From: a virus
Reading direction: 5' to 3' (one strand)
DNA length: 64,000 nucleotides
Virus record (IMG/VR): IMGVR_UViG_3300020438_000021
Location: 1 to 64,000 of that record
This document shows positions 33,077 through 48,906 of the stretch, in pieces. Each line of letters begins with the position of its first letter. Positions within the stretch are counted from its first letter, which is position 1. The translations under genes and the position numbers were made by a program. The notes under the pieces are model-generated. The model worked only from the letters and a program-made list of their open reading frames with translations. It did no database searches and had not been told where the DNA came from.

Positions 33077-33320
33077 GATGGAAGAGTTAATTGAAACACT
33101 AAAGAGAATGCAATACCACTTCAGTAAGTTCATTGAAGAGTATGAGAATCTACCACAGTTGAAGAACGTTGTCAGGAGAACAGTGCTAGAAGACGCAATA
33201 TCTGTTGTCGGAGCGACAATGGATGGAATAACAAATGAGATAGTTGATGCTTGGCATCATTATCAACAACAAATGATAGACAACAATGTAATAGATATAG
33301 GTGATGAAAATGATGAATAG
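33057..33320 (+). CDS. hypothetical protein
   Basis: ORF track; likely start at MEEL (33078). Confidence 0.6.
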   Translation: MYQERIKMEELIETLKRMQYHFSKFIEEYENLPQLKNVVRRTVLEDAISVVGATMDGITNEIVDAWHHYQQQMIDNNVIDIGDENDE

Positions 33321-33903
33321 AAGAATAATGATAATCGGAGCAGGTGGAATTGGTAGTTTCCTAACACAATTCCTTCAGAGACTAGGATATAGAATAACAG
33401 TGTTTGATGATGATGGTGTTGAGAGGAAGAACATCGGATATCAGAACTTCAGTGTTAATGATATAGGAGAGAACAAAGCAAGTATTCTAGCAGACAGAAT
33501 ATGGGACACATCCTTTCGTGGCACAGTCAACGATGAGCCTTTCAAGGTTCTAACAGCAAAGCAGTTACAGGGCTACAACTTGGTTGTGTGTTGTGCAGAT
33601 AATCTTGCTGTAAGGCGTTTATTGTATCAGCAAGGGTTTGGTGCAGATGCCAAGTTGAAGTGGCTAGACCTGCGAGCGCAGGGCAGGAATGGGGTATTGG
33701 TATCCTATCTAGCAGACCCTTCTATGAAGAGACTTGCAGATGGTGCTGATGGTTCATTCTCATGTCAAGCACAGTCTTGGGATGGGACTGCTAAGGATAT
33801 TGATTGCATGAATATCGTAATTGCTGCAACAGCAGCACAATGGATACAGAAGTGGTTCAACGATAACAACGATGTCAAAGACATGATGGTGTTGAACATA
33901 TGA
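33301..33903 (+). CDS. E1-like ThiF/MoeB family adenylyltransferase
   Basis: IIGAGGIGS, FDDDGVERKNIGYQ, KA, VCCADN..R; putative catalytic Cys in SCQ. Confidence 0.9.
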   Translation: MMKMMNRRIMIIGAGGIGSFLTQFLQRLGYRITVFDDDGVERKNIGYQNFSVNDIGENKASILADRIWDTSFRGTVNDEPFKVLTAKQLQGYNLVVCCADNLAVRRLLYQQGFGADAKLKWLDLRAQGRNGVLVSYLADPSMKRLADGADGSFSCQAQSWDGTAKDIDCMNIVIAATAAQWIQKWFNDNNDVKDMMVLNI

Positions 33904-34911: not shown

Positions 34912-35463
34912 ATGAAAACAAATGAAACAGAATATGAAAATGGAATAATAGAAGGATTGGAAGTAAAGGATGAGAATTGGAAGGAGGATATTAGAACTGT
35001 ATTTAACAATATAGAGTTCAACTATCCTTTCCCTGACCCACAGACAGAGGCATTCTACACAGTGATATGGAACAAGTCTCTTGAGGCGTTTGATTCGCCA
35101 AGAGAAGTACAGGTAATCGTAGATGCGAAAGACGACTTGTATATGAGTGTAGGAACTTTCGGATTTGTGAGTTTCAAGAATCAAGGTGAACAACTAGATG
35201 GAATGAAAACCCCCTTGAAATGTTGGATACACACACATCCATTCGGTCAGGCTTTCTTCAGTGGAACTGATTGGAAAACAATCAAGTCATGGAGAGGTAT
35301 GATGGAAAGTGCAACAGTTCTTGGAGATAACCAGTTCATTGCATATGACCCAAAGACCGAGATAGCGAAGAAAGTTCACTATGGTATTTACAGACAAGAG
35401 CCTGTTGAGAAGCCTGAGTGGGTAAAGGCAGCAGAAGATGTATTGGATGGTGAAGAGGAATGA
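34912..35463 (+). CDS. JAB/MPN+ (JAMM) metalloprotease
   Basis: E (REVQV)...WIHTHPFGQAFFSGTD matches E-xn-HxH-x7-S-x2-D. Confidence 0.88.
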   Translation: MKTNETEYENGIIEGLEVKDENWKEDIRTVFNNIEFNYPFPDPQTEAFYTVIWNKSLEAFDSPREVQVIVDAKDDLYMSVGTFGFVSFKNQGEQLDGMKTPLKCWIHTHPFGQAFFSGTDWKTIKSWRGMMESATVLGDNQFIAYDPKTEIAKKVHYGIYRQEPVEKPEWVKAAEDVLDGEEE

Positions 35464-35654
35464 GTAAGAAGTTCTACACGATAGCGTTGCAGTATGATAT
35501 TAGTGGAGACCCATGTGACCCACCACATCATATTGAAGATAGGATGGTTATGCTCATGCAACTAATGCATGAGAGAGGATTCGGTATGGATGTATCCTAC
35601 GGATATGCTGACAAGAAGATAATGAGAACAATTGAGGAAGGTGCTAAGGAATGA
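35460..35654 (+). CDS. hypothetical protein
   Basis: ORF track. Confidence 0.55.
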   Translation: MSKKFYTIALQYDISGDPCDPPHHIEDRMVMLMQLMHERGFGMDVSYGYADKKIMRTIEEGAKE

Positions 35655-35989
35655 ATACTTATTGTGGAATAGCAGATGCTCATGGATTAGAGTCTTTCAT
35701 GGAATGTGAAGGGATAGGTTCTGCTCCTATGACTCTGACAATGAGGGCAAGTCTGAACAGGCAGAGACATGCTTTGGTGTATTGGGTTGAACTACCTGAT
35801 GACAAAGCAGAGCAGATGCATGAGGCAATCAGGCAAGCACAAGCAGATGGAGATTGGCATGAGCCTCTTCTTCTACTAAAGAATCCTGACTTCACGGAGA
35901 CAGTATCCTTTGAGGATTCAATGAAGGGTAGTTGGGATATGATACCCAATGACAAGTTAGACCCATATTGGGGAAGTGATGATGAATGA
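35651..35989 (+). CDS. hypothetical protein (GIADAHGLESF...RA..NRQRHA)
   Basis: ORF track. Confidence 0.7.
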   Translation: MNTYCGIADAHGLESFMECEGIGSAPMTLTMRASLNRQRHALVYWVELPDDKAEQMHEAIRQAQADGDWHEPLLLLKNPDFTETVSFEDSMKGSWDMIPNDKLDPYWGSDDE

Positions 35990-36744
35990 AGTATTGGGCA
36001 TTTGAAATGAAGACAGGTGATGACAAACTCATCAACTGTAATGAGATTGAGAGGGTGTTCCTACTTGGTAAACATCAGGAGTATGATGTGATGTCAGGAA
36101 TTGGTGTAGATGTTATCTATGATAATGTTCAGTTACTAAAGACTGAAATTGTATCAACAGTAAATCCAAAGGAGAACAAGAATTTCAAATCGAATCGAAA
36201 GAAGAAGGACAGTAAGATACCTGTTAGGCATGAGATACGAGCAGGTGGTAAGACGGAGATTGTTCATATCCCTGTCTCTGCTGAACAACGCTTTCAGAAT
36301 AAGAAGGTGAGGGAGTCGGTAGAAGGAACAATAGTGAAGATATTGTCAGATGGTATTAACACAGATTTCTTTGTCAAGAGACATGTAGACGGCTCGCTCT
36401 ATCTTCTACAAGAGGAGAATACCCACCATGAGTATTGGGGTAAGTGGAAGATTCAACCTAACGAATGGGTTCTTTGGAGTGATAACTATGTCAAGAAAGG
36501 AAAGAAGGGTACACCACATGAACATCATCGTTCAGCGTGTTGCTATGCTCCTAACAGAAGGAGACTTGCCAACAAGCCATTTTGTCTAGATTGCGCTGGT
36601 GACACAAAGGTGCAAAGAACAAACAGGAGAATAAACAACGGTGGTCCTGAAAGTAACTTGATTTTTACGAAAGATGGAGAACTAACAACAGCATGGACTC
36701 AACAGAGTCTAGACAGATTAAGACAACAGGAGGATAACGAATGA
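35986..36744 (+). CDS. hypothetical protein with Zn motif
   Basis: ORF track. Confidence 0.65.
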   Translation: MKYWAFEMKTGDDKLINCNEIERVFLLGKHQEYDVMSGIGVDVIYDNVQLLKTEIVSTVNPKENKNFKSNRKKKDSKIPVRHEIRAGGKTEIVHIPVSAEQRFQNKKVRESVEGTIVKILSDGINTDFFVKRHVDGSLYLLQEENTHHEYWGKWKIQPNEWVLWSDNYVKKGKKGTPHEHHRSACCYAPNRRRLANKPFCLDCAGDTKVQRTNRRINNGGPESNLIFTKDGELTTAWTQQSLDRLRQQEDNE

Positions 36745-36971
36745 AAGATAAATATTACAAATTGACGACAGAATCAGGAATGACGACATTGAACATGGCA
36801 GATGTATCAGCATACTCTGTGATAGAAACACCACAGGGAATGTTGAAGAAATCCGTTTACGATGTTGAGATACACTTGAAGAGTGGTACTATCTTTACTA
36901 CTATAATGACAGAAGCAGAGATGATAGTTTGGGAGGATGTATACTTCCCTAAGTCGGTGGTGAACGAATGA
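36741..36971 (+). CDS. hypothetical protein
   Basis: ORF track. Confidence 0.65.
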   Translation: MKDKYYKLTTESGMTTLNMADVSAYSVIETPQGMLKKSVYDVEIHLKSGTIFTTIMTEAEMIVWEDVYFPKSVVNE

Positions 36972-37099
36972 AGAACGGAAGATACGCAAGACATGAAGCA
37001 GCAGTGGAAAGAAAACTTGATGAGATTAAACTACTGTTGGAATTACAGACCAAGTTACTAACAGGCTTGGCATTCACAGAAATGATGGAGGAAGAATAA
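36968..37099 (+). CDS. 43-aa helical micro-protein
   Basis: Translated by hand; coupled overlaps. Confidence 0.5.
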   Translation: MKNGRYARHEAAVERKLDEIKLLLELQTKLLTGLAFTEMMEEE

Positions 37100-37212
37100 T
37101 GAGAGTGAGAATGACTATGGAAAACAGCAGACAGACAACACTAGAGGAATTTGGTTTTACATTTGGAGAGAGACAGACGACTCTAGAAGAGTTCGGTTTC
37201 GTCTTTCAATAG
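37099..37212 (+). CDS. 37-aa micro-protein made of two tandem PIP-box-like motifs (RQTTLEEFGF x2)
   Basis: Translated by hand; GGAGG RBS; TAATG coupling. Confidence 0.65.
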   Translation: MRVRMTMENSRQTTLEEFGFTFGERQTTLEEFGFVFQ

Positions 37213-37252
37213 GATGTAGCAACATATTTATCCTTCCTGTACTTGCGAGAAG

Positions 37253-37735
37253 ATGATTGTGATGACGAACAGCATTAACAAACTATTGACGCTTATGATA
37301 GTAGGTGTATTCCTAGCAGGATGCACAGAAGCATTACCTGACCCACCTGAAGAGGAGTTTGAGGGTCAGATAAATGACAGTGATTGGACTGTATTGGCTG
37401 GCGAGTTTACGCTTGTGATGAATAACAGCAGCAATGAGTCTCTTATTCATGCCCCTACTATTTGGTTAGACACAAACACAACATACGGAGCAATAGAACT
37501 TCAGTCATTTACATACAATATAACGCATCTGTCCTTTGAAGTAATCAACAATTCAGTTATCTTCAGCAATTACAGTTGGGTAGACATGCAAGGCTACTTG
37601 ATTCAAGGAGGCATGTATTGGTCAAGTGGTTTTGCTCCTGAGTTCGGAAACGCAACCCTGCACTTTGCAGCCTTCCCATTCGATGTTACAGTTGAGTATG
37701 AACTGGTATACAGAGTATGGGATGGCAGACAATGA
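37253..37735 (+). CDS. predicted lipoprotein / surface protein
   Basis: Hydrophobic signal + FLAGC lipobox; several N-x-S/T sequons. Confidence 0.7.
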   Translation: MIVMTNSINKLLTLMIVGVFLAGCTEALPDPPEEEFEGQINDSDWTVLAGEFTLVMNNSSNESLIHAPTIWLDTNTTYGAIELQSFTYNITHLSFEVINNSVIFSNYSWVDMQGYLIQGGMYWSSGFAPEFGNATLHFAAFPFDVTVEYELVYRVWDGRQ

Positions 37736-38130
37736 AGAAAGCAGTAACTGTACGCTTTCCTGCTCCGCTACCTGCGGAGATAGAGTGTCCTATTTGTTTA
37801 GGAAACAAGTGTGTAGTCTGTGAAATGTCAGGTAAGATAAAGGTCACAGTTGATGCTAAAGTACCTATTCAAAGACATCTGATTGTACAGTATATTGCTG
37901 AACACATGGATGAGGTTGCTAATGAACTATCACAGAAGTTTGGTCTTATACCTGATATAGAGACTGAGGATATGTTTGAGGTTGAAGGTAGAACATATGA
38001 ACTAGTAAAGATAAGTAGTCTTGGTGGTGTTGTATGGGTAGCACACAGAATAGATGCACAGGAATCTCCACGATACTTTAAGTCGTGGAAAAACTTACAG
38101 CAGTTTAAGGGTGGTTGGCTTGAAGGATGA
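37732..38130 (+). CDS. DnaJ-type Zn-finger protein
   Basis: CPICLGNKCVVCEMSG. Confidence 0.6.
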   Translation: MKKAVTVRFPAPLPAEIECPICLGNKCVVCEMSGKIKVTVDAKVPIQRHLIVQYIAEHMDEVANELSQKFGLIPDIETEDMFEVEGRTYELVKISSLGGVVWVAHRIDAQESPRYFKSWKNLQQFKGGWLEG

Positions 38131-38356
38131 AAAAATAATGGTAAGAATACCAAGAAACGGAAATGAAGAACTAACAGTAAGAACAGGTAACTATTGGAAT
38201 GTTGACATAGTTGACATTCGTTGGTATGCTAACGGAACACCAACAAAGAAAGGCGTTAGAATGAATATGAAAGAAATGAAAGATGTCGCTAAGGCATTGA
38301 ATAAGATAATTGAGAGGAATAAAAATGACAATGATACGATTCAGCAGGATGTGTGA
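38120..38356 (+). CDS. PC4-like ssDNA-binding / coactivator protein
   Basis: VDIRWY...PTKKGVRM. Confidence 0.75.
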   Translation: MKDEKIMVRIPRNGNEELTVRTGNYWNVDIVDIRWYANGTPTKKGVRMNMKEMKDVAKALNKIIERNKNDNDTIQQDV

Positions 38357-39857
38357 AGCACTAGAAGACAGAACACCATCAGAAAAAAGACATATGATAT
38401 GTGCGACTCTACCTCATTTCAAGGATAAGAAGTCAGCAATCAAGATTCTATCGATAGATTATGAGAAGAATAACATCGGTGAGAAGAAGGCCATAAAATG
38501 GCTTGCTAATATGTTCGATGTCTTTGAGGATGAGATTCAGGATTCAGTATACACTTGGATGGACTTAGGAGAAGGAATGAAGGAGTTCGTAAGTCAAAAC
38601 AGACCTGACTCCACTTTCACCCTAGCAGAGATATTGAGACTGTTGGAATTGAACTGCTCTTCACTAAGCAAGGATGGTAACTATTCATTGATACGAGAAG
38701 CAATATCACAGATGTCTGCTTTAGAGATGAAGTGGTTTATTCGCTACTGGTTGAGAACACCTAGAAACGGAGTCAACAAAAGCACAGTGGAGAAAGCAAT
38801 GGGAGACTACTATCAGTGTGATATGAAGAAGTATACGATAAGTCATTCACTGACCAGTCTTGTAGACTATCTAGAGAATGACCTAGAACCACCTGAACTG
38901 GTGCATGGTAACTTCGTCAAACCGATGCTTGCCAAGAAATACTTGGGTAAACTACCTGAGAGTTTCATAATGGATGTGAAGTACGATGGTAATCGCTATC
39001 AGATACATGGAAAGGATGATGATGTTATCATCTTCAACCGTAAGGGTAAGATTGTAACAGAGCAATATGCAGATATCGTAGCGATAGTGAATGAGTGGGA
39101 AGCAAATGACTTCATCTTGGATACTGAGATTTATCCAATAACAAGAGATGGTAGTCCTGCTCCTCATCAGGCTCTTGCAACAAGAGTGCATTCAAAGGAC
39201 AAGCAACAGGCCATATCACAATGTCCTGTGAAGTTGGTTGTATTCGACTGCCTGTTGTATCAAGGTCAGTCTATTCTAAATGATACATATGGCGATAGGC
39301 TAGAGTATCTAGAAACCATTGTTCCAACGGAGTTCGTGACTCAGACATTTAGACATGGTAACGTGGATGCTGCGTATAATGTGGCAATCAATGGTGGCTT
39401 TGAAGGTGTGATGATAAAGGACTTGAATGCTTCTTATCAGTCAAAGAGAACTGTCTCGCTCTTGAAGTATAAGCCACCAAGAGTAGAACTGGATGTTGTC
39501 ATAACATCAGGAGAATACGGCAAAGGAAAGAGGGCAGGTGTGATAGGCACATACGGAGTTAGCGTTAAAGATGGCTCGGATTATGTGAACATCGGTAAGA
39601 TTGGTAGTGGTATATCAGAGGAAGAGATGTATTCACTAGATACTCAATTGAAGCGAATAGTTGATAGTTTCAGTGGTGGAACATATTACTTCTTACCTAG
39701 AATAGTCCTTGAGGTTACTTGTGATTTAATCAGTCAGAATCAGGATGGCACTTATGGTATGAGGTTTCCAAGAATACTAAGAATAAGAGATGACAAGTAT
39801 CCTAGTGATTGCAATACTATCGAGGATGTAGTAGAACAGTGTAGCAACATATATTGA
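38325..39857 (+). CDS. lig: ATP-dependent DNA ligase
   Basis: PMLA, KYDGNR, LDTE, FDCL, EGVMIK, KYKP, RFPR; N-terminal DNA-binding domain. Confidence 0.93.
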   Translation: MTMIRFSRMCEALEDRTPSEKRHMICATLPHFKDKKSAIKILSIDYEKNNIGEKKAIKWLANMFDVFEDEIQDSVYTWMDLGEGMKEFVSQNRPDSTFTLAEILRLLELNCSSLSKDGNYSLIREAISQMSALEMKWFIRYWLRTPRNGVNKSTVEKAMGDYYQCDMKKYTISHSLTSLVDYLENDLEPPELVHGNFVKPMLAKKYLGKLPESFIMDVKYDGNRYQIHGKDDDVIIFNRKGKIVTEQYADIVAIVNEWEANDFILDTEIYPITRDGSPAPHQALATRVHSKDKQQAISQCPVKLVVFDCLLYQGQSILNDTYGDRLEYLETIVPTEFVTQTFRHGNVDAAYNVAINGGFEGVMIKDLNASYQSKRTVSLLKYKPPRVELDVVITSGEYGKGKRAGVIGTYGVSVKDGSDYVNIGKIGSGISEEEMYSLDTQLKRIVDSFSGGTYYFLPRIVLEVTCDLISQNQDGTYGMRFPRILRIRDDKYPSDCNTIEDVVEQCSNIY

Positions 39858-41525: not shown

Positions 41526-42452
41526 ATGGAGAAGATGAAAATGTTATGGACAGAGAAATACAGACCAAAGAGAATTGCTGATGTAGTAGGACAGTATAAC
41601 TTTACGATAGATGCAGAGAGTTGGGTAGAGCAGAACAATATGCCCAATGTTCTATTGTACGGTGTAGCAGGGGTCGGAAAAACGGCTGCTGGTATTGCCC
41701 TCGCTAATGATATGTTGAAGGAAGATAAGGACAATAACTTCTTTGAAATAAATGCATCAGATGACAGGAGACTAGAGACAGTCAGAAATCAAATCAAGGA
41801 GATTGCTTCAACGAAGAAGATTGGCAATGTCCCATTCAAGATTATACTTCTTGATGAGATGGATGGTATGACTAAGGATGCTCAGAATGCATTGAAGAGA
41901 ATCATGGAGAGATATGCTGAGAATGTCAGATTCATTATTACATGTAATGAGAGACACAGGATAATTCATCCGTTGCAGTCTAGGTGTGCTAACTATGCAT
42001 TCCATAGACTGAAGCCACAGTCAATGCATATTCTTCTAACTAGGATATTAGATAGTGAGCAGATTACACATGTAACAAGTGATGAGTTAGAAACTTTCAT
42101 AGACTCCTTACATGGAGACATGAGAAGAGGGCTTACTGAACTTCAGGCTGCTATCTACGGTAAGTCCTCACTGTTGAATCAAATTGACAAGAACTTAGAA
42201 CCATATACCGAAATAATGCAAATGATTGATGATAATAAGTATGAAAATAGTTTAGGTAAGGTGCATGAGTTGTTGTATAATTCGGTGGATATGAAGACAG
42301 TGTGCATTAATTTGCATGATGTTATCATTAAAACGGATATGCAATCCGCCAAGAAGTTCAAAATGCTTAGGGTTATCGGAGAGGCTGAGTGGCGGAGTAG
42401 TAGTATGACCCCTAAACTACTAGCGTCTTGGATGATAGGTCAGTTGATGTGA
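41526..42452 (+). CDS. rfcS: replication factor C small subunit
   Basis: WTEKYRP, GVAGVGKT, EINASD, LLDEMD, SRC. Confidence 0.93.
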   Translation: MEKMKMLWTEKYRPKRIADVVGQYNFTIDAESWVEQNNMPNVLLYGVAGVGKTAAGIALANDMLKEDKDNNFFEINASDDRRLETVRNQIKEIASTKKIGNVPFKIILLDEMDGMTKDAQNALKRIMERYAENVRFIITCNERHRIIHPLQSRCANYAFHRLKPQSMHILLTRILDSEQITHVTSDELETFIDSLHGDMRRGLTELQAAIYGKSSLLNQIDKNLEPYTEIMQMIDDNKYENSLGKVHELLYNSVDMKTVCINLHDVIIKTDMQSAKKFKMLRVIGEAEWRSSSMTPKLLASWMIGQLM

Positions 42453-45190: not shown

Positions 45191-45211
45191 TGCTATTTAG
45201 GAGGAATGAAA

Positions 45212-45979
45212 ATGAGAATAGAAATAAACAATAAAACACTAACAAACGCAATAGAAGATGTATGGATGAAAGGAAAGTATCACAATGGCGATTCAGCAAA
45301 GAACGGTCAATTAACCGATTATGCAATGCTTGAACTCGTTGAAGGTAATATACTGAATCTATACAATGCTGACAATCAAACCATCTGTCGAGTGTCTGTA
45401 CCTATAATTAGTCAGACAAACGAAGACAGCAATAATATGGTTGTAGTAGAGATAGACAAGATACTCAAGTATCTTAAGACATTCACAGGAGACAGGGTTC
45501 AGTTAGTTGCTGAAGACTTTATCCTATTACAAGACGAAGGCGGAGGAAAGAGGGCAAGTTTACCACTAGTTGTTAATCATCCTAATGCAGCGATGATTGC
45601 TAGGATTCAAGGCTACACTATTACTCCTGAGAATCCTGTCTTTAGTAGTGTGGTCTTTGAGTCTATCATTACCACAGGCTCTAAGATACTAACAGATGCA
45701 ATCAAGACTTGTGATGTTATCAACAACGCAAAGTATCTGTTAGATACAGACAATCAACACTTCACCATTTCAAGCAGGAAGTCTGACATTGACAAGGTAG
45801 ATGTCATAGTTTCTACGCTATCTATGAATGGTGAATCAGCAACGGTAGAAGTAACTGGTCAGTTCCACAAGTTCTTTCGTGGTTCTGTTCCTGTGACTAT
45901 CTACTTGAAAGACGAGTCTCCTGTTATATGGGCAGGAGAGGATAGAATACTAATCAAAGCCCCATACATTACAAGGTGA
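45212..45979 (+). CDS. pcn: PCNA-like sliding clamp
   Basis: About 255 aa with clamp-like pattern (AD...CRV.VP; EIDKILKYLK; IYLKDESPV; IKAP); directly upstream of PolB. Confidence 0.75.
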   Translation: MRIEINNKTLTNAIEDVWMKGKYHNGDSAKNGQLTDYAMLELVEGNILNLYNADNQTICRVSVPIISQTNEDSNNMVVVEIDKILKYLKTFTGDRVQLVAEDFILLQDEGGGKRASLPLVVNHPNAAMIARIQGYTITPENPVFSSVVFESIITTGSKILTDAIKTCDVINNAKYLLDTDNQHFTISSRKSDIDKVDVIVSTLSMNGESATVEVTGQFHKFFRGSVPVTIYLKDESPVIWAGEDRILIKAPYITR

Positions 45980-47664
45980 TTACAATGATAATAGCAAACA
46001 CGAAAGAAGGTATCTTCCTGAGATGGAGAGATGCAGAGAAGAAGGTTGTAGAGGAAGAGATTCCCTATGCCGACTTCTCTCCATATTTCTTTGTGGAGGC
46101 TTCTAATATCGTTAATGTTGACGCTGAATCTAAGGTTTTCTTGAAAGAGGGATACCAACAGAAGGATAAGTTTCCTGCAACTCTAACTTATGAGAGCGGT
46201 GATTGGGTAAACCTTCAAGGTGATTCACTTGTGAAAGTGACATGGACACCACATAAAACTATGAAATCCGATGCTAGGAATGTAACGAGTAAAGTTAGAG
46301 CATACTATCATGATAGAGACATACCAACGTATGAAGCAGATGTTCAACACCATTATCGATATGCTGTCGATAGATTGGATAAACTGAACGATTACAATCT
46401 AAGGAAATGGTATTGGGATATGGAATGGATGCAAGGTGGAGAGCATGATGGTGCGATTACTGCTATCGTTGTCTACGATAACTATGATGATGAGTATTAC
46501 ACATTGACATGGCTTCCTGATTCAAGTGAGACTGAGAGAACAGTGCTTGAGAGATTCATGTTGATGCTAACTGAGAAAGACCCTGACATGCTTATCTCAT
46601 GGTTCGGTTGGAAGTTCGATGTACCTAAGTTAATCGAGAGGCTACACACAAATGGAATCGACCCAAGACTACTATCTCCTGTTCACGAAGTAACAGGTGT
46701 TGAATGGAATATCAAGGAGAGAAAGAGAATACTGAAGACTAAGCAGATAGAGAACTACTCTCCGATTGCTCAACCAATCAAAGGTAGAATATGCGTACCT
46801 CTAGACTTGGCCTTTGAGAGACAATGGAATGATGCACAAAGAGGAACTTTACCTTCACTGTCACTAGACTATGTTTCAGAGTATGTCTTAGGTGAGAAGA
46901 AACTAGTGAGCGAGAAGTTTCCCGATAAGAATGAGTTCTTCAGGAGAGGCTGGCAAGAAGACAATGAGACATATCTAGAGTATGCCTTGAAAGACGTTGA
47001 ACTAATCAAGAGGATAGACGATGAGAACTTCACAACTGAAGCAATACTCTCGTTACAACGTTTACTGATTGCACCGTTCGATGCTTGCTTCTACGCTAGT
47101 AACATGGGTGGAATATACTTCATGAGAAATGCCTCATGGAAAGCACCTACGGGCAGGAAAGGAGACAGGGTAGAGTATGATGGTGCGATGGTCTATGACC
47201 CGCTTAGTGAAGGCACAAATGGTCTTCATTTGGGTGTTGCAGCATTTGACTTCGCTGGTCTGTATCCAAGCATGATGATTGCAAGAAATATCTCTTGGGA
47301 GACTAAGTCTCAGACACCTACACAATTTGGTGTAAATCTTAGAACACCAAAAGACTTCTCTAAGGTAGAAGACTATGACATGAGATACTACAATAGTAAT
47401 GAACTAGGGTTATTGCCAAAAGCAGTTCTAGAGTTGAAAGAACTGAGAAACGAATACAAAATGAAAATGAAAGAAAGTGAAAGTAAAAGTGAATATGTGA
47501 AATGGAACAACAACCAACTTGCAGTCAAGAGATTGATGGCATCCTTCTATGGTATCATTGCGTATCAGGGATTCGGTTGGGCTGATGTTGATTTAGCGGC
47601 AAGCATCACTGCTAGTGCTAGAGAAGCCATTCGCATTGCAGCATTCAAAGTGAGGGAACTATAA
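45976..47664 (+). CDS. polB: family B DNA polymerase, N-terminal part (3'-5' exonuclease + motifs A, B)
   Basis: WDME, FDVP, YALKD exonuclease motifs; FDFAGLYPS; KRLMASFYG. Confidence 0.92.
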   Translation: MITMIIANTKEGIFLRWRDAEKKVVEEEIPYADFSPYFFVEASNIVNVDAESKVFLKEGYQQKDKFPATLTYESGDWVNLQGDSLVKVTWTPHKTMKSDARNVTSKVRAYYHDRDIPTYEADVQHHYRYAVDRLDKLNDYNLRKWYWDMEWMQGGEHDGAITAIVVYDNYDDEYYTLTWLPDSSETERTVLERFMLMLTEKDPDMLISWFGWKFDVPKLIERLHTNGIDPRLLSPVHEVTGVEWNIKERKRILKTKQIENYSPIAQPIKGRICVPLDLAFERQWNDAQRGTLPSLSLDYVSEYVLGEKKLVSEKFPDKNEFFRRGWQEDNETYLEYALKDVELIKRIDDENFTTEAILSLQRLLIAPFDACFYASNMGGIYFMRNASWKAPTGRKGDRVEYDGAMVYDPLSEGTNGLHLGVAAFDFAGLYPSMMIARNISWETKSQTPTQFGVNLRTPKDFSKVEDYDMRYYNSNELGLLPKAVLELKELRNEYKMKMKESESKSEYVKWNNNQLAVKRLMASFYGIIAYQGFGWADVDLAASITASAREAIRIAAFKVREL

Positions 47665-47861: not shown

Positions 47862-47974
47862 ATATAGAAAAGTGGTCACAAGACAGATTTGCAACACTAG
47901 CATTGGCTAGAACAGTATTTGGCTTTCTAAAAGTCATAATTGCAGTAATTGTAGCAGTGGAGTTGGTATTATGA
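47858..47974 (+). CDS. 38-aa membrane micro-protein inside the split polB
   Basis: Translated by hand: MNIEKWSQDRF...IIAVIVAVELVL; ATGA overlaps on both ends. Confidence 0.55.
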   Translation: MNIEKWSQDRFATLALARTVFGFLKVIIAVIVAVELVL

Positions 47975-48906
47975 AGGTAGTTTATGGACATACGGACTCG
48001 ATTTACGTTGATATTGAAGACAACAGCATTGAAACTGCTGAAAAGGCGTTGAAAATACTGAATGAACATGTTAGAGAGGCATTTCCTAATGTAATGGGCT
48101 TGAAGGAACATCCTGTAACACTAGAGTTTGAGAAATACTTCAGAACTTTAGGTGTTGGAGCAACAAAAAATAGAAATGCAGGTCTAATTACTTGGAAAGA
48201 TGGTAACTTCCTTGATGAAGAAGAGTTTGTGATGACAGGATTCACTGCAAAGAGGGTTTCTCTGACTAAACTAGCCAAAGATGTTCAATTGTCAGTGCTT
48301 AACATGTGGGTTGAGGGTAAATCGGAGCAAGAAATAGTCTCTTATCTGAATGATAAGTACAATTCTGTCATGCAAGGTAAGATTCCACTATCAGATGTTC
48401 TACAAAGAAGTAGATTCCGTGAAGAAAGGTTCAGATTAGTATGCAAGGTATGCAATCCAAAGGCTAGATTCGACAAAGGATGGAGTAACAAGTCAGTTAG
48501 TGTGTTTGACTTGATGCAACATGGTGGATGTATAGATGACATGGGTAGAGTAATGGAGCATTCTAACTTCGTTACTGTTGGAGGCAAGCGACCAACATTT
48601 GGTTCGGGAGTTGAGGGAGTGCTGTTTAGCCATTCACAGGGATATGAAAAGATAGAGGATACCTATCTTTATCTTAGAATCAAGAATTGCAGGGAGCATT
48701 ACATGCATCCTGTAACTAGGGAGTTCACAACTCCCAATTATGTATCTAGATTAACTGCCGATGAGTTTGATGACTTTGACCCTGATTGGTCACATTATGC
48801 AGAATCGGTAGTTAAGAAAGCAGAACCTATCTTCAGAGCAATGGGATGGAACACAATGCAGATAAAAAGAGACACACAGCAATCCTCTTTGGAGGAGTGG
48901 TTTTGA
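47971..48906 (+). CDS. polB: family B DNA polymerase, C-terminal part (motif C, thumb, PIP box)
   Basis: VVYGHTDS, LEFEK, KNRNAG; C-terminal QSSLEEWF. Confidence 0.9.
   Translation: MKVVYGHTDSIYVDIEDNSIETAEKALKILNEHVREAFPNVMGLKEHPVTLEFEKYFRTLGVGATKNRNAGLITWKDGNFLDEEEFVMTGFTAKRVSLTKLAKDVQLSVLNMWVEGKSEQEIVSYLNDKYNSVMQGKIPLSDVLQRSRFREERFRLVCKVCNPKARFDKGWSNKSVSVFDLMQHGGCIDDMGRVMEHSNFVTVGGKRPTFGSGVEGVLFSHSQGYEKIEDTYLYLRIKNCREHYMHPVTREFTTPNYVSRLTADEFDDFDPDWSHYAESVVKKAEPIFRAMGWNTMQIKRDTQQSSLEEWF

Follow-up and report, generated by a model that had tools for sequence, protein, structure and literature searches.

A Conserved Micro-protein Family in Magroviruses and Related Viruses Carries PIP-Like Motifs and Is Predicted to Bind a Sliding Clamp

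A micro-ORF in the replication module of a marine virus (magrovirus) of Poseidoniales archaea encodes a member of a conserved family of PIP-like peptides, a family that we did not find in the literature searched. The product is most likely a stand-alone, intrinsically disordered peptide that is predicted to bind a sliding clamp, and we lean toward the view that it acts as a competitive blocker of the PIP pocket of host PCNA. The analysis covers a window of 64,000 nt, positions 1 to 64,000 of the record IMGVR_UViG_3300020438_000021, which is a 79-kb virus contig recorded as 82% complete.

The micro-ORF comprises 37 codons and a stop, and its product reads MRVRMTMENS-RQTTLEEFGF-TFGE-RQTTLEEFGF-VFQ. 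A sequence-only reading of this DNA had claimed an ORF that encodes two tandem copies of one motif, and we found exactly the peptide that it quoted. The features of the locus are as follows.

36968-37099, + strand: upstream 43-aa ORF, translationally coupled to the micro-ORF, with conserved synteny
37087-37091, + strand: GGAGG, Shine-Dalgarno-like, with 7 nt between it and the ATG of the micro-ORF
37099-37212, + strand: micro-ORF, with a 10-residue leader, unit 1, a 4-residue linker (TFGE), unit 2, and a 3-residue tail
37129-37158, + strand: motif copy 1, RQTTLEEFGF, residues 11-20, the copy that docks in the PCNA pocket in the co-fold
37171-37200, + strand: motif copy 2, RQTTLEEFGF, residues 25-34, placed 14 residues after copy 1 and 3 from the C terminus
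37253-37735, + strand: downstream 160-aa ORF with a signal peptide and a lipobox-like VFLAGC, the usual right-hand neighbor of the micro-ORF

The micro-ORF is almost certainly a real gene. The ORFs that precede it (35986-36744, 36741-36971, and 36968-37099) overlap by 1-4 nt, and the A of its ATG is also the last letter of the TAA that ends the upstream ORF (TAATG); from these chained overlaps and the TAATG junction, we conclude that the micro-ORF is the last member of a translationally coupled chain. A repeat finder reported the two motif copies as a direct repeat (37129-37157 and 37171-37199; 29-nt copies, 83% identity, 42-nt period). The two 30-nt units that encode RQTTLEEFGF differ at six positions, and all six differences are at third-codon positions and synonymous. 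Only 20 of the 90 possible single changes in such a unit (22%) are synonymous, which gives a probability of ~1.2e-4 for six out of six. In addition, we counted 28 distinct DNA contexts for the exact decapeptide RQTTLEEFGF, which between them use every one of the four Thr and four Gly codons as well as four Leu codons; selection therefore acts on the peptide rather than on the DNA. The sequence-only reading had argued for protein-level selection from the codon differences between the two copies, and the synonymous pattern and the 28 contexts bear this out.

These results also bear on the possibility that the ORF is a chance open frame over a noncoding DNA repeat. The ORF is very short, and in four metatranscriptomes the only RNA contigs over 35600-38400 were at 37332-37487 and 37865-38394, with none on the micro-ORF; the lack of an RNA contig could be taken to favor a chance frame, but these data are uninformative on expression either way. 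Against a chance frame stand the purely synonymous substitutions, the encoding of one peptide in 28 DNA contexts, the coupled start with its Shine-Dalgarno-like element, and the existence of 33 family clusters (see below). We consider a chance frame extremely improbable, and regard it as effectively refuted by the profile search together with the synonymous pattern.

Two further observations concern the neighborhood of the micro-ORF. Five successive ORFs (112, 252, 76, 43, and 37 aa) span 35651-37212 on the + strand with overlaps of 1-4 nt and ATGA or TAATG junctions, and the four of them that were scanned (all but the 112-aa ORF) had no Pfam match. An 11-nt inverted repeat (37089-37099, AGGAAGAATAA, and 37228-37238, TTATCCTTCCT; 91% complementary) flanks the micro-ORF, and it may be due to chance.

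The motif is conserved well beyond this virus. We scanned IMG/VR with the back-translated nonapeptide QTTLEEFGF and found 38 loci, compared with an expectation of <1 (our own estimate from the degeneracy of the pattern); at every one of the 38, the motif lies within a short ORF. A family profile made from an alignment of 27 micro-proteins (A3) was searched against 1.84 billion representative proteins at E ≤ 1e-3. It matched 33 proteins, all of which are 28-136 aa long and none of which is the tail of a large enzyme. The sequence-only reading had depended on the ORF being conserved, and the IMG/VR loci and library proteins together show conservation beyond chance. Searches with the micro-protein against Pfam, PHROGs, and PDB sequences returned nothing, the sole PDB profile match being a 7-residue coincidence, and the ESM Atlas contained no usable look-alike (scores of at most 0.78).

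The genomic setting is conserved as well. The block has the order orf76-orf43-micro-orf160-orf137-PC4-like, and of 24 related IMG/VR loci that were collected via the 160-aa gene, 18 have a motif-bearing micro-ORF immediately before that gene on its upstream side. Three contigs that lack a micro-ORF at the usual place carry one elsewhere on the same contig (L001, L013, and L025 versus L053-L055). This arrangement raises the possibility that the peptide is unrelated to clamps, and that it serves as a cis-acting leader or arrest peptide for the lipoprotein-like gene or as a ligand of another protein that recognizes QTTLEEFGF. The usual distance of 40-110 nt between the micro-ORF and the 160-aa gene would suit a leader, as would the library protein P0061 (99 aa), in which two PIP-like motifs are fused in frame to the signal peptide and lipobox (LLAGC) of the usual downstream gene; the fusion could be real, or it could be a frameshifted assembly or a gene-call artifact. 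The dominance of FGF over FF in the motif points the same way. However, a leader does not account for the contigs in which the micro-ORF is placed elsewhere, and a function unrelated to clamps is at odds with the textbook PIP boxes in relatives, the match between the motif and host PIP tails, and a co-fold with host PCNA that passes with clean controls (see below). We therefore consider a function unrelated to clamps improbable.

The columns of A3 that are invariant are the R, Q, T, L, E, and G of R-Q-T-[TK]-L-x-E-[FYW]-G-[FLM], which is usually followed by x-F-[EQND]-stop. Within this pattern, the family takes several forms. Single-motif forms are 19-23 aa long and consist, for example, of the leader MRVTLTLENS and then the motif; two-motif forms are 28-37 aa long, with TFGE, VLGT, EGFGS, and other linkers; and longer forms have acidic tails ending in ...EEE. 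The window protein corresponds to a single-motif form like that of L026 plus a second unit, and at the C terminus it shares 18 identical residues with the leaderless two-motif form in L002. Among the IMG/VR loci there is also an 81-85-aa form with a CxxC element, whose second motif is a textbook PIP box, QTKLTDFY. Canonical variants occur among the library proteins too (QTTLDEFF and QTKLEEFI in P0075; QTTLEEFL-stop in P0081, which also has QTTLHEFM), and P0059 and P0066 carry W-G-[LM] versions of the motif. The 81-85-aa form, exemplified by L006:6474-6716(-) and also found in L007-L009, L028, L035, and L037, has CCxCG near its N terminus, then RQTTLEEFGF, and then QTKLTDFY. The viruses that encode it have an unsplit 771-aa PolB with a C terminus (…KGYW) that is not a PIP box.

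The PIP-box consensus is Qxxhxxaa (PMC6204406). The Q at position 1 is present in both copies (Q12 and Q26), as is the aliphatic residue (L, I, or M) at position 4 (L15 and L29), and both columns are invariant in the 27 sequences of A3. The two aromatic residues at positions 7 and 8 are not both present in the window protein, which reads F-G-F at positions 7-9; most relatives likewise have G at position 8, and some (P0075, P0081, and the 81-aa forms) have F, Y, L, or I there. The motif has the terminal, disordered placement of a PIP box, the last copy ending 3 residues before the stop in the window protein and in most relatives.

For comparison with the host, we read the C termini of FEN1 and RNase HII in 12-13 Poseidoniales genomes, which were reached via a MAG contig match. 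FEN1 ends in GQTSLFSF, GQTSLFDF, GQTSLLEF, or GQSTLLDF, and RNase HII ends in QSSLDDW, QSTLEDW, QRSLDDFMRE, or similar sequences. Judged by these tails, the PIP box of the host lineage is Q-x-[ST]-L-x-[DE]-[FW], with one aromatic residue and often with the carboxy terminus right after it, a pattern that QTTLEEF fits exactly. Because the host PIP box has a single aromatic residue, G at position 8 should be tolerated, as a residue without a side chain is compatible with such a motif. The earlier identification of QxxLxxF as the archaeal PIP motif stands with regard to positions 1, 4, and 7, the host tails, and the canonical relatives; at position 8 of the full consensus, G takes the place of the aromatic residue. 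Overall, it is likely that the micro-protein is a clamp-binding PIP peptide.

The motif does not appear to have been copied from a core small protein of the host. We searched 401 Poseidoniales genomes with the pattern Q-T-x-x-[DE]-[EQ]-F-G-F, in which position 4 was left almost free, and rejected this origin because only four of the genomes contained a match. Two of the four matches are the same site, a 52-codon stop-to-stop frame that lies antisense inside a 392-codon open frame, and one lies inside a 346-codon ORF beside ORFs with membrane-protein features. The remaining match, L065:96-290(+) on contig G001:C194, is a 65-69-aa ORF that starts with MSNRSEQEQVQET and then has the exact motif, RQTTLEEFGFEF. 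This contig of a Poseidoniales MAG is 2.2 kb long with a GC content of 0.59, and the ORF adjoins a large secreted-protein gene; the ORF could be a host gene, part of an integrated element, or the product of a misbinned contig. Recurrent weak matches in host proteins of ~355 aa were to unrelated membrane proteins and were set aside.

The micro-ORF lies among replication genes. The + strand from ~27 to 54 kb encodes RNR, a TFB-like protein, ThiF, a JAB-like protein, a weak PC4-like match, an ATP-dependent DNA ligase, an RFC small-subunit homolog, a split PolB, a PD-(D/E)XK nuclease, and an ERCC4 nuclease. The genes that concern us here are as follows.

41526-42452, + strand: RFC small-subunit-like clamp loader, with AAA, DNA_pol3_delta2, and Rep_fac_C matches
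45206-45979, + strand: divergent sliding clamp of 257 aa, assigned by predicted fold, with no Pfam match
45976-47664, + strand: N-terminal fragment of the split PolB
47971-48906, + strand: C-terminal fragment of PolB, ending in the canonical PIP box QSSLEEWF (48880-48903)

The replication module of magroviruses (Magrovirales/Aoguangviridae-like) contains PolB, a clamp, RFC, an ATP-dependent ligase, and TFB and lies opposite the structural module, and its PCNA gene sits between RFC-S and PolB-NTD (PMC10768690). The window contains this magrovirus module, as the ligase, RFC, split PolB, TFB-like protein, RNR, ThiF, JAB, and clamp fold were all found. In the same strand block, upstream of the micro-ORF, the ThiF/E1-like gene (33301-33903(+), E = 1.5e-18) and the JAB-like gene (34912-35463(+), E = 0.003, which is under the Pfam cutoff) form a pair that is consistent with a ubiquitin-like system.

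The ORF upstream of PolB-NTD, at the place of the clamp, had no match in searches of Pfam, PHROGs, and PDB sequences. Its true start is at ~45206, and we modeled its product with AlphaFold2 from a 21-sequence alignment (pLDDT 75). All of the top Foldseek matches of the model were archaeal PCNAs and bacterial beta clamps (E~5e-9, probability 1.00); the TM-scores were low (~0.35), a consequence of the poor orientation of the two modeled domains. From these matches, we conclude that the virus has its own, very divergent clamp. This agrees with the earlier claim that the virus uses a clamp of its own, as do the RFC homolog and a PolB with a PIP tail. Relatives of the clamp span 22-94% identity and share few invariant residues (G23, K24, N54, L90, H125, C169, G209, P239, and P253), and the family has a conserved C-terminal ...KAPY strand. 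The earlier report that the viral PolB ends in QSSLEEWF was correct: 47971-48906 ends in ...QQSSLEEWF*. Apart from the micro-ORF, this is the only credible gene in the window with a terminal PIP-like motif, and the same tail is present in a 102-kb relative.

Following a proposal of the sequence-only reading, we co-folded the micro-protein (with alignment A3) and a Poseidoniaceae PCNA (L097, identified as PCNA by Pfam and source names; 52-row alignment A6). The ipSAE was 0.81, 0.75, and 0.76 in three runs (median 0.76), and the best control reached 0.03, which gave the verdict "supports binding." The ipSAE mark was passed by 58 of 80 solved complexes and by 2 of 110 mismatched pairs, counts that hold only roughly here because our own alignments were used. 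The runs agreed in at least 94% of contacts, and the partner pLDDT was at least 65.

The predicted interface on PCNA comprises residues 39, 42-46, 117-122, 124, 149-150, 165, 192, 194, 219-220, 237, and 239-244. They map to a strand of the N domain, the interdomain connector loop (IDCL), the pocket, and the ...FLAPRVE tail at the C terminus, and jointly make up the classical PIP site. The peptide makes contact through residues 4-7 and 9-23, which include motif 1 and the FTF strand; L15, F18, and F20 touch pocket residues, and F20 contacts the same PCNA residues as L15 (39, 46, and 237). Of the 27 contact residues, 18 are at least 90% conserved across 52 Poseidoniales PCNAs, compared with 83 of 246 positions overall (hypergeometric P = 2e-4). 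Structures of PIP-PCNA complexes have been solved in large number, and the pass may therefore reflect likeness to, or memory of, the motif class; two such complexes, 1RXM and 1ISQ, were among the Foldseek matches of the viral clamp model. The co-fold thus suggests that the peptide is PIP-like for Poseidoniaceae PCNA and is not proof of binding.

According to the reading that we favor, the peptide would be produced early in infection from the replication-module operon. Each 13-14-residue unit (R-Q-T-T-L-E-E-F-G-F-x-F) would act as a PIP box followed by a short alternating-hydrophobic strand, and Q12, L15, and F18/F20 would insert into the hydrophobic pocket under the IDCL of host Poseidoniales PCNA. 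There, the peptide would compete with the PIP tails of host FEN1, RNase HII, polymerase, and other proteins, and host replication and repair would be shut down while viral replication went on with the virus's divergent clamp, RFC, and PolB. In this scheme, we infer that the peptide actually binds, that it inhibits, and that the viral clamp is spared. The noncanonical G at position 8 of the window motif counts against this reading. The 19-23-aa relatives consist of a short leader and the motif only, so that occupancy of the site is the only function for which they leave room, and this makes the adaptor role that the sequence-only reading had offered as an alternative unlikely for them. A virus that replicates with a clamp, loader, and polymerase of its own can also tolerate a block of the host's.

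The target of the peptide might instead be the virus's own divergent clamp, in which case it would regulate the viral replisome by displacing PolB, recycling clamps, or timing the transition between replication and packaging, comparable to T4, in which proteins have a clamp-binding motif in common. The micro-protein motif is similar to the viral PolB tail QSSLEEWF in that both contain S/T-S/T-L-E-E-aromatic, and given this shared motif and the KAPY strand of the viral clamp, the peptide could bind the viral clamp equally well. Moreover, the micro-ORF always lies within the replication module, and every examined record of >40 kb that carries a micro-protein has either a match to the clamp profile or RFC. 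On the other hand, the motif is closer to the single-aromatic PIP box of the host than to the WF type of the viral PolB tail, and it is letter-identical in viruses whose clamps share only 39% (G403) and 28% (G408) identity with that of the window, whereas the host pocket is nearly invariant. Self-inhibition would also bring no obvious benefit. On balance, we think it rather unlikely that the viral clamp is the target, and we continue to prefer host PCNA.

We found no virus among the examined records that carries a micro-protein and clearly lacks a clamp of its own. One candidate was G402 (118 kb, CheckV 100%), in which the micro-ORF is present and nothing matches the clamp profile or PF00705. 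We dropped the argument from a clamp-less virus, as this genome encodes RFC and, where synteny would place the clamp, has a 251-aa ORF. The ORF (L135:8382-9137(-)) lies between a 320-aa ORF and PolB; it has no detectable similarity to the magrovirus clamp profile or to Pfam PCNA, hhalign yielding only a 34-residue match, and it may be an even more divergent clamp. The 31-kb contig of L037, from which the library protein P0044 was suspected to derive, also had no clamp match, and the suspected link was abandoned.

The host-PCNA reading leaves the role of the second motif to be considered. Relatives carry one or two motifs, and in the tandem forms the Q-to-Q spacing is 13-16 residues and recurs in many clusters, which suggests a structural constraint. 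Neighboring pockets on one PCNA ring are roughly 40-50 Å apart by our own geometry estimate, too far for the ~5 residues between the end of unit 1 and the Q of unit 2, so that no two pockets of one ring can be filled. The tandem motifs would more probably increase occupancy, either because the peptide rebinds or because it links subunits that belong to different rings or clamps. Alternatively, the two-motif forms might be bivalent bridges that link host PCNA to the viral clamp, or two rings to each other, and so recruit or sequester clamps that the host has loaded. Recurrence of the two-motif forms with constrained spacing would fit a bridge, as would the divergence of the first copy (QTKLSEF) from the second (QTTLEEF) in several lineages. 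The one-subunit co-fold fits it too, as motif 1 alone was among the confident contacts and motif 2 was left available. However, many relatives consist of a single motif and nothing else, and bridging therefore cannot be the core function of the family; as a purpose of the two-motif forms, we judge it unlikely.

The motif has close counterparts in known clamp ligands. The PIP peptide of p21(CIP1/WAF1), a protein of 164 aa, is RQTSMTDFY, which is nearly the same as the RQTTLEEFG-F of the micro-protein, and the predicted interface of the micro-protein has the same elements as that of p21 (pocket, IDCL, and C-terminal tail). p21 is a CDK inhibitor with basic flanks, whereas the flanks are acidic or neutral in the 37-aa micro-protein, which has two tandem motifs with G at position 8 and lacks the N-terminal cyclin/CDK-inhibitor domain of the CIP/KIP proteins, having no Pfam match. 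The likeness is one of motif convergence and not of homology. The C-terminal peptide of p21, which has a PIP motif, binds at the PIP site and is inhibitory to other partners (PMC6204406). Among the natural PIP ligands measured in PMC6881253, that of p21 is the tightest, and its basic flanks drive its affinity.

The Thermococcales inhibitor of PCNA (TIP) of T. kodakarensis is a small archaeal protein with a noncanonical PIP box that inhibits PCNA (PMC6204406, citing Li 2014 and Altieri 2016). As described there, TIP has an amphipathic helix after its PIP box, which sets the micro-protein apart, since it has no such helix and only 3-4 residues after each motif; with 3 residues after the last motif, ring-breaking in the manner described for TIP is not expected of it. 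The family therefore belongs neither to TIP nor to CIP/KIP and falls among PIP ligands and clamp blockers. Like the micro-protein, Poseidoniales FEN1, RNase HII, and the viral PolB have Q-[TS]-[ST]-L-x-[DE]-[FW] at or near a C terminus. In those proteins, the tail tethers an enzyme to the clamp, whereas the micro-protein carries no enzyme and can thus only occupy the clamp site. Staphylococcus phages encode polypeptides that bind the beta clamp of the bacterium and bring its replication to a halt. They embody the same concept, in that a small viral protein competes with replicase subunits for the peptide-binding pocket of the clamp, but the clamp family (DnaN), the motif, and the hosts, which are bacteria, differ, and no sequence relation is expected.

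In full-text searches on PCNA or PIP boxes of magroviruses and Poseidoniales viruses and on PCNA inhibitors encoded by archaeal viruses, we found no description of such micro-proteins, and a 2025 survey of Poseidoniales viruses mentions neither PCNA nor PIP. We tentatively propose, as a possibility for magroviruses and related Poseidoniales viruses in general, that a dedicated family of anti-PCNA micro-proteins, which are bare PIP peptides with one or two binding motifs, selectively saturates or cross-links the invariant host pocket while the divergent viral clamp escapes. If so, the family would represent a naturally evolved, virus-encoded minimal ligand of the PCNA pocket, the archaeal-virus counterpart of p21, TIP, and the phage anti-beta-clamp peptides. 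It would also provide a rationale for magrovirus clamps that are too divergent for Pfam, and clamp divergence and a PIP decoy would make up a two-part strategy of host takeover in viruses that rank among the most abundant archaeal viruses in the ocean. Synthetic peptides of 14-37 residues would offer a testable handle on the replication biology of the uncultured Marine Group II archaea, and the natural variants would be of use in studies of how clamp occupancy is tuned by PIP flanks and by the tandem arrangement. More generally, ORFs that fall under annotation cutoffs can hold strongly selected viral effectors.

A micro-ORF of the magrovirus type, MRVTLTLENSRQTTLEEFGFVFE, is also present on a 24-kb contig (L067) in a MAG assigned to the alphaproteobacterium Maricaulis sp.; this is probably a misbinned magrovirus contig.
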